A stretch of 64,000 bases of DNA from a plasmid. Both the position numbers and the translations under genes were made by a program. Below the pieces are notes generated by a model. The model saw only the letters and a list, made by a program, of their open reading frames with translations, searched no databases and was not told the origin of the DNA. Positions 17,387 to 18,382 of the stretch are shown piece after piece. The number at the start of each line of letters is the position of its first letter. Position 1 is the stretch's first letter. The DNA is taken from sequence record CP113993.1; one strand, 5' to 3'.

Positions 17387-18194
17387 AAGTTAGCGATGAG
17401 GCAGCCTTTTGTCTTATTCAAAGGCCTTACATTTCAAAAACTCTGCTTACCAGGCGCATTTCGCCCAGGGGATCACCATAATAAAATGCTGAGGCCTGGC
17501 CTTTGCGTAGTGCACGCATCACCTCAATACCTTTGATGGTGGCGTAAGCCGTCTTCATGGATTTAAATCCCAGCGTGGCGCCGATTATCCGTTTCAGTTT
17601 GCCATGATCGCATTCAATCACGTTGTTCCGGTACTTAATCTGTCGGTGTTCAACGTCAGACGGGCACCGGCCTTCGCGTTTGAGCAGAGCAAGCGCGCGA
17701 CCATAGGCGGGCGCTTTATCCGTGTTGATGAATCGCGGGATCTGCCACTTCTTCACGTTGTTGAGGATTTTACCCAGAAACCGGTATGCAGCTTTGCTGT
17801 TACGACGGGAGGAGAGATAAAAATCGACAGTGCGGCCCCGGCTGTCGACGGCCCGGTACAGATACGCCCAGCGGCCATTGACCTTCACGTAGGTTTCATC
17901 CATGTGCCACGGGCAAAGATCGGAAGGGTTACGCCAGTACCAGCGCAGCCGTTTTTCCATTTCAGGCGCATAACGCTGAACCCAGCGGTAAATCGTGGAG
18001 TGATCGACATTCACTCCGCGTTCAGCCAGCATCTCCTGCAGCTCACGGTAACTGATGCCGTATTTGCAGTACCAGCGTACGGCCCACAGAATGATGTCAC
18101 GCTGAAAATGCCGGCCTTTGAATGGGTTCATGTGCAGCTCCATCAGCAAAAGGGGATGATAAGTTTATCACCACCGACTATTTGCAACAGTGCC
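17387..18194 (-). mobile_element. IS26 (IS6 family), partial: left inverted repeat intact at 18181..18194, right inverted repeat missing its terminal roughly 12 bp
   Basis: GGCACTGTTGCAAATAGTCGGTGGTGATAAACTTATCATCCCC... is read on the minus strand from 18194. Sequence stays IS26-like down to GTTAGCGATGAGGCAGCC at 17387 but is not preceded by the inverted repeat. Confidence 0.85.
17427..18131 (-). CDS. tnpA: IS26 transposase Tnp26, 234 aa
   Basis: MNPFKGRHFQRDIILWAVRWYCKYGISYRELQEML... is identical to the IS26 transposase as recalled. Confidence 0.92.
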   Translation of the reverse strand: MNPFKGRHFQRDIILWAVRWYCKYGISYRELQEMLAERGVNVDHSTIYRWVQRYAPEMEKRLRWYWRNPSDLCPWHMDETYVKVNGRWAYLYRAVDSRGRTVDFYLSSRRNSKAAYRFLGKILNNVKKWQIPRFINTDKAPAYGRALALLKREGRCPSDVEHRQIKYRNNVIECDHGKLKRIIGATLGFKSMKTAYATIKGIEVMRALRKGQASAFYYGDPLGEMRLVSRVFEM

Positions 18195-18382
18195 ATAAAT
18201 GTCGCCTGCGTTCCATCGGCATTAATGTGCAACCGTACCTGGCACCCTTTGCCTAAATACCAACAGGGTTGGCACTCATAGACATAACACTCTTCTTCTG
18301 CGAACTGGCGTAAAACGCCAGAAATCGTCGGCAGCCATTGTTCCTCTGGTAACGCCAGGTGTAAAAATTCACTGATTTTCAT
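18195..18382 (-). pseudogene. ybtS: ybtS (irp9) salicylate synthase, 5' fragment only (about 62 codons), truncated by IS26
   Basis: MKISEFLHLALPEEQWLPTISGVLRQFAEEECYVYE...LHINADGTQATF matches the YbtS N-terminus. The frame then reads through the IS26 inverted repeat. Confidence 0.8.

Follow-up and report, generated by a model that had tools for sequence, protein, structure and literature searches.

Disruption of ybtS by IS26 in a pESI-like Salmonella plasmid, probably through inversion of a 31-kb segment

We found that ybtS, the salicylate synthase gene of the yersiniabactin cluster, is cut after codon 62 by an IS26 copy in a pESI-like megaplasmid, and that this IS26 copy, itself short of most of one inverted repeat, joins the ybt block to plasmid backbone lying in inverted orientation relative to the reference. 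Judged by the geometry of the two junctions, IS26 probably cut ybtS through inversion of a plasmid segment of about 31 kb, most likely by one-step transposition in trans. Such an inversion is an ordinary kind of plasmid rearrangement. The analysis concerns a stretch of 64,000 nucleotides of sequence record CP113993.1, referred to below as the window.

The plasmid and its yersiniabactin module

Sequence comparison placed the window in a pESI-like megaplasmid of Salmonella enterica (Infantis type), a well-known poultry plasmid. pESI is a described plasmid family which carries the ybt operon (PMC8627215, PMC9990980). Direct comparison with pN55391 (NZ_CP016411.1) aligned window positions 1-18194 with 140820-159027 on the plus strand at 99.9% identity (ends vary by 1 bp) and positions 18195-60496 with 127301-85000 on the minus strand at 100.000% identity. 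Over 60.5 kb or more, the window is 99.9-100% identical in nucleotide sequence to the pESI backbone and ybt module and collinear with them, and it has the ybt and adi modules of pN55391 as well as its IS26 insertion site in the backbone. It differs in the joint that IS26 makes between the ybt and adi/backbone blocks, whose relative orientation is inverted, in the cut of ybtS after codon 62, and in one IS26 inverted repeat being short by 12 bp. A BLAST search of PLSDB likewise assigned both IS26 flanks to pESI-like megaplasmids of Salmonella Infantis and its relatives, in which they lie at separate places. The features of the two blocks outside IS26 and ybtS are as follows.

1-17386, plus strand: plasmid backbone segment, equal to pN55391 140820-158207 in the same orientation (99.9%)
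18410-19690, minus strand: ybtX, intact
19683-21485, minus strand: ybtQ, intact
21472-23274, minus strand: ybtP, intact
23642-24601, plus strand: ybtA regulator gene, intact
24792-30899, plus strand: irp2 (HMWP2), intact
30987-40484, plus strand: irp1 (HMWP1), intact
40481-43962, plus strand: ybtU, ybtT and ybtE, all intact
44093-46114, plus strand: fyuA receptor gene, intact

The ten ybt genes other than ybtS are open and 100% identical to those of pN55391, which bears out the first-pass annotation in its description of an otherwise intact cluster. Measured against the complete set of the high-pathogenicity island (HPI), ybtS-ybtX-ybtQ-ybtP-ybtA-irp2-irp1-ybtU-ybtT-ybtE-fyuA, the window thus holds ten intact genes and 62 codons of ybtS. 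The same annotation was right that neither an int gene nor tRNA-Asn flanks the locus: ARAGORN detected no tRNA-Asn in the 64-kb window, and the P4-type integrase of the E. coli HPI gave no tblastn match better than E = 5 in the window or in the 100 kb of pN55391 around ybt. It had described this as an island lacking its integrase, a reading that we cannot uphold, since the module is a plasmid-borne one of the pESI type and no integrase adjoins it in the references either. In a chromosomal HPI of E. coli the order is tRNA-Asn, P4-type integrase, ybtS, and nucleotide homology between HPI and pESI ends at the ybtS stop codon, ybtS being full-length in the reference pESI. Because homology stops there and the pESI references are without int and tRNA-Asn, their absence is not a lesion of the copy in the window; as far as these comparisons go, it is a standing property of the plasmid-borne ybt module, unrelated to the IS26 event. 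The module resembles the Yersinia and E. coli island (asnT-int-ybtS...fyuA) in its ybt gene order, and its ybtS region is around 93-97% identical to that of an E. coli HPI. Yet it is plasmid-borne and has neither a P4-type integrase beside ybtS nor an insertion at tRNA-Asn, which is true of all pESI-like plasmids examined. A chromosomal HPI origin was ruled out, as the flanks are pESI backbone.

The backbone segment carries genes for an MFS transporter, an IS630 transposase, an Rpn nuclease, AdiC, AdiA, an HTH regulator, an exonuclease and two hypothetical proteins. By its alignment to the reference it is part of a segment of about 31 kb that is inverted relative to the ybt block. Outside IS26, these 18 kb differ from pN55391 by one SNP (9729), one additional base in a T-run (12510) and three missing bases in a G-run (around 15109-15116). 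The poly-G run lies in or beside the exonuclease-like gene, the annotated length of which also differs between pN55391 and pS19, and the difference reflects either a variable homopolymer tract or a sequencing error.

Several further features of this segment were recorded. An inverted repeat of about 620 bp (4193-4816 and 14945-15543, 90-99% complementary) brackets the adiC/adiA arginine-decarboxylase module and overlaps the gene of the Rpn-family nuclease and the gene annotated as '3'-5' exonuclease'; it could enable the acid-resistance module to invert, or be a mark of the module's acquisition. Between adiA and the HTH regulator gene, ARAGORN reported a tRNA-like structure with a two-base anticodon (10623-10699, plus strand, 'tRNA-???'), probably a false positive. 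The two hypothetical genes that adjoin IS26 (15590-17334) match chromosomal genes at about 85% identity in many E. coli genomes, which suggests that this part of the pESI backbone came from an enterobacterial chromosome. Two short overlapping ORFs of 70 and 60 aa (16967-17322, minus strand), immediately upstream of the IS26 site, flank a C/G homopolymer at about 17226-17232. The reference plasmids carry the same sequence, and the pair may represent a frameshifted gene.

The IS26 copy and its two junctions

The elements which meet at the boundary between the two blocks are listed below; a slash marks the junction wherever sequences are given across it.

17367-17389, no strand: junction made by the 12-bp loss, CTTATCCT-ATGAGAC-AGGAT/AAG
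17387-18194, minus strand: truncated IS26, 808 bp long, the outer 12 bp of IRR being missing from the full 820 bp
17427-18131, minus strand: tnp26, intact 234-aa DDE transposase (from the translation; PF13610 DDE_Tnp_IS240, E = 2e-48)
18181-18194, no strand: complete 14-bp terminal repeat TTTGCAACAGTGCC (IRL, beside the tnp26 start), joined to ybtS at its last base
18143-18382, minus strand: 79-aa fusion ORF, 62 aa of YbtS followed by 17 aa from IS26, no Pfam domain
18195-18382, minus strand: ybtS 5' fragment, 62 codons and 2 nt out of 443 codons, equal to pN55391 127114-127301
18195-18202, no strand: ATAAATGT, the 8 bp of ybtS abutting IS26, presumed target octamer

The IS26 sequence begins at 17387 with AAGTTAGCG... 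(AAGTTAGCGATGAGG…) and ends at 18194 with …TTTGCAACAGTGCC. It encodes the single DDE transposase, Tnp26, that characterizes IS26, without any difference from the pN55391 copy (annotated as WP_001067855.1). Of the 14-bp inverted repeats GGCACTGTTGCAAA that bound IS26 at both ends, one is present: the motif occurs once in the window, at 18181-18194, and a second occurrence was not found. Set against two pESI plasmids with IS26 at this site, the left repeat lacks its outer GGCACTGTTGCA (12 of the 14 bases) and keeps the last two (17387-17388), while every base of the backbone flank ...GACAGGAT is preserved; the remnant is otherwise identical to the IS26 of pN55391 at this site. That IS26 had lost roughly 12 bp of this repeat, with the match starting at 17387, had already been noted in the first-pass annotation, and alignment of the junction region to the references reproduced every coordinate that it gave for the ybtS and IS26 ends. 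The copy is truncated and presumably immobile.

At the right junction, antisense ybtS begins at 18195, directly after IRL. The 62 residues of the fusion ORF that precede the insertion sequence are identical to the N-terminus of full-length pESI YbtS (443 aa), as expected from the earlier reading that about 62 codons of ybtS remain before the left inverted repeat of IS26 at 18194. No 8-bp direct target duplication flanks IS26, its neighbors being GACAGGAT and ATAAATGT; intramolecular IS26 events are expected to leave none (PMC4471558). Since these sequence relationships are exact, chance is no issue for the observations made at the junctions. We also looked for a hybrid outward promoter that the inverted repeat of IS26 (-35 TTGCAA) might create for antisense transcription of ybtS and ybtX, and rejected it, as neither inspection by eye nor a scan revealed a suitably spaced -10.

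The two junctions appear to differ in age: judged against the references, that between backbone and IS26 is ancestral and that between IS26 and ybtS is new. IS26 occupies the identical backbone base (…GACAGGAT/GGCACTGTTGCAAAGTTAGCG…) in 94 pESI-like plasmids of PLSDB (pN55391, pS19 and 92 more). All 94 plasmids spanning the site align to the window at 91.0% identity, the value of a single 12-base gap, and in pN55391 and pS19, the two inspected base by base, the inverted repeat is complete. The other end of IS26 borders sul1 in pN55391 and tra genes in pS19. As for the IS26-ybtS junction, it was found in none of the 163 ybtS-containing PLSDB plasmids, where every match begins at the first ybtS base, and it was likewise absent from E. 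coli complete genomes, GTDB representative genomes and JGI metagenomes. The 79-aa fusion ORF had no match in the gene-position index. The truncated IS26 end was detected in no context in genome_contigs or metagenome_contigs (pattern BAAGTTAGCG...), nor was the window's own truncated backbone-IS26 junction in PLSDB or E. coli genomes. With neither junction present in the collections searched, the event appears private to this plasmid.

Inversion and the competing accounts

The reference runs from ybt…ybtS through about 31 kb of backbone to IS26 (from IRR to IRL) and sul1. In the window, IRR still lies on the backbone, IRL abuts ybtS at codon 62, and the orientation of the ybt block is reversed. 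An old flank at one IS end and an inverted new flank at the terminal base of the other are what an inversion product displays, and the new junction coincides precisely with the end of a complete inverted repeat, as expected of a transposase-made joint. Because the backbone junction is kept and the ybt block sits, inverted, on the other IS end, we recognize the signature of an inversion, after which the plasmid has probably retained the 3' part of ybtS outside the window. This inversion is read from one junction and a reference, and the source plasmid may be arranged unlike pN55391.

We propose that the resident IS26, which normally borders the sul1/class-1-integron/mer resistance region, would have reacted with the octamer ACATTTAT in ybtS, a target in the same molecule at a distance of about 31 kb. 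Most likely this happened in a single step of intramolecular replicative (copy-in) transposition in trans. Equivalently, a second IS26 could have inserted in inverted orientation, with homologous recombination between the two copies afterwards. Either route would invert the 31 kb between IS and target. The expected product is ybtS 5' (62 codons), IS26, the inverted backbone, ybtS 3', a second IS26 and sul1. Written with its IS ends, the prediction for transposition in trans is ybtS5'-IRL…IRR-backbone (inverted)…ybtS3'-IRR…IRL-sul1, which agrees with the order observed. The model further predicts that the target octamer ACATTTAT would occur once per new junction in inverted orientation, the second copy beside the partner IS26. 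The partner junction would read …CCGGCATCATCAATAAATGT/GGCACTGTTGCAAAG… (…CCGGCATCATCAATAAATGT/GGCACTGTTGCAAAGTTAGCG…), and the sul1-side flank ACAGCCAT… would come after the far IS end. Given a backbone collinear with the reference, the 3' part of ybtS and the second IS26 probably lie around 13.5 kb beyond the left edge of the window.

The products of IS26 transposition in trans and in cis have been modeled and illustrated with examples (He et al. 2015, PMC4471558; Varani et al. 2021, PMC7986276), and inversions and other rearrangements are already documented in pESI-like plasmids (PMC9990980). Like the trans inversions of IS26 described by He et al. (2015, PMC4471558), the window has one IS end on the old flank and the other precisely on a new target in the same replicon, with the intervening DNA inverted relative to the ancestor and a gene split into distant parts. 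It differs from them in that the visible copy would have later lost most of one inverted repeat, and in that the partner IS26, with the inverted repeat of the octamer, would lie beyond the window.

The earlier suggestion of a further adjacent deletion or IS26-mediated rearrangement holds for its second half: a rearrangement is supported, and a simple adjacent deletion does not fit the kept backbone junction and the inverted ybt block. In the deletion account, IS26 would have removed the ybtS 3' part together with the integrase and tRNA-Asn, leaving a one-ended IS26. Adjacent deletion is a common outcome of IS26 activity (PMC4471558), all three of the items supposedly lost are absent from the 64-kb window, and plasmid pN16S214 provides a case of ybtS truncated by IS26 with loss of upstream ybt genes. 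Yet the ybt module of pESI-like references has no P4-type integrase or tRNA-Asn to lose. Moreover, a cis event predicts ybtS5'-IRR…IRL-sul1 with the backbone lost, but the backbone is kept and ybtS is found, inverted, on the opposite IS end. A simple cis deletion from the reference arrangement was rejected on this geometry; deletion would fit only given an earlier, unobserved inversion, and we regard it as improbable.

The inversion, for its part, has to accommodate the defective IRR, with which the copy in its present state could not have transposed, and an extra event or an artefact must be assumed. Cleavage at both inverted repeats starts the copy-in reaction (PMC7986276). As both IS ends are needed for it, the 12-bp loss would be either later than the rearrangement or artefactual. 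It could be a minor secondary deletion, perhaps through a quasi-palindrome template switch, or a scar of assembly or polishing. A real loss would deprive this IS26 copy of independent mobility. The gap begins exactly at the IS tip, without flanking microhomology, which raises the suspicion of an assembly scar.

This suspicion belongs to a broader account, in which IS26 simply inserted into ybtS (ybtS5'-IS26-ybtS3', with an 8-bp direct duplication) and the assembly left the collapsed repeat by a wrong exit, into the backbone flank of a different IS26 copy, the 12-bp gap being the scar of the wrong join or of polishing. pESI-like plasmids hold some 5-12 IS26 copies each, and an assembly, if made from short reads, could have taken a false path through this 820-bp multicopy repeat. 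The missing bases begin at the very boundary between repeat and unique sequence, the backbone differs from the reference at two homopolymer runs as well, and no other record searched has either junction, which leaves the inversion, too, without independent confirmation. Against an artefact speaks the sequence quality, which is high in view of 100.000% identity over 42 kb on the ybt side and three other differences on the backbone side; the backbone-IS26 junction is, besides, real in 94 related plasmids. A mis-assembly is on balance unlikely, though it deserves to be kept in mind. Even then IS26 would truly interrupt ybtS: the IS26-ybtS junction must exist in the reads, and the disruption of the gene stands.

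The DNA around the gap also argues against a join made by software. The backbone has a pre-existing 5-bp palindrome arm that ends precisely at the IS boundary, and the IS26-derived AAG lengthens it to 8 bp, an extension of 3 bp with a chance of 1/64 that points to an event driven by DNA structure. As single-stranded DNA, the new junction forms a hairpin of -5.0 kcal/mol (z = -3.6), compared with a 5-bp stem at the reference junction. In a fold-back template switch, the nascent ...AGGAT would fold on ATCCT, copy CTT as AAG and realign on the AAG at IS26 nucleotides 13-15, which would delete exactly these 12 bases.

Predicted loss of yersiniabactin production and its meaning

Full-length pESI YbtS has a chorismate-binding catalytic domain, the hallmark of the Irp9/YbtS salicylate synthases, at residues 173-424 of 443 (Chorismate_bind, PF00425; E = 5e-77). 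The 79-aa fusion ORF contains none of it, and ybtS is consequently inactivated, under inversion and mis-assembly alike, as the first-pass annotation had concluded. In strain UTI89, deletion of ybtS abolishes yersiniabactin and 0.3 mM exogenous salicylate restores its production (PMC2637984). The window resembles that mutant in having lost the salicylate synthase with the rest of the pathway intact; it differs in being a natural IS26 disruption in Salmonella with a predicted phenotype, and the UTI89 mutant is an engineered E. coli strain (PMC2637984). As ybtS is split, no salicylate synthase would be made and no yersiniabactin is expected unless salicylate is supplied; the predicted phenotype is thus absence of yersiniabactin, rescuable by salicylate. 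With ybtS the last gene of ybtPQXS, gene order implies that no polar effect on other ybt genes is to be expected.

The retained genes had been seen as the pattern of a siderophore cheater or a salicylate-cross-fed strain. In its adaptive form, this idea holds that ybtS knock-outs are selected in poultry-associated Salmonella, as non-producers which keep FyuA and YbtPQ could exploit the yersiniabactin or salicylate of their neighbors. The untouched uptake, regulatory and assembly genes and the rescue of a ybtS mutant by salicylate (PMC2637984) agree with it, and ybtS has been hit elsewhere by IS1A and by IS26. The IS1A copy lies inside ybtS in NZ_CP080426.1 (S. Heidelberg pSH-365.07, 3001-5109), being seen in two IncC hybrid plasmids (H118 and H119). 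In CP082646.1 (pN16S214, 4233-5518), IS26 truncates ybtS at nt 815 and the upstream ybt genes are not adjacent. These two lesions are independent hits on the same ybtS allele.

Several observations stand against adaptive loss. The ybtS gene is covered to at least 80% in 161 of the 164 plasmids that have it (most of the matches listed at 100% identity), as is the 24.6-kb cluster in 159 of 185 records. Other parts of the cluster are damaged too, with large internal deletions (NZ_CP092862.1, NZ_CP130622.1), and the pN16S214 lesion resembles a deletion end-point and not a targeted knock-out. The event in the window is private and shows no secondary decay, and the 100% identity of the remaining cluster to the reference marks it as very recent. 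Salmonella has enterobactin and salmochelin, and given these siderophores the loss of ybtS function may be near-neutral. The ybt lesions of related plasmids are of several kinds. Cheating is a possible consequence without specific support, and adaptive loss we consider hardly credible. Two bolder readings, one that IS-made ybtS knock-outs recur in poultry-associated Salmonella plasmids through the advantage of cheaters which keep receptor and importer, the other that the 12-bp loss is a real quasi-palindrome template-switch deletion, are taken together very improbable; under the second, flanking hairpins could permanently disarm an IS26 copy.

The case adds one further example of IS26 reshaping pESI, in which the structure is new and the plasmid and the mechanism are well known, and it opens no new question. 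The 'missing integrase' is to be annotated as a trait of the plasmid-borne module, not as a lesion. The practical value of the finding lies mainly in annotation and surveillance. Some gene-presence screens use ybtQ and ybtX as ybt markers (PMC8627215), and the plasmid would score as 'ybt-positive' in such screens, yet it is predicted to be a yersiniabactin non-producer.
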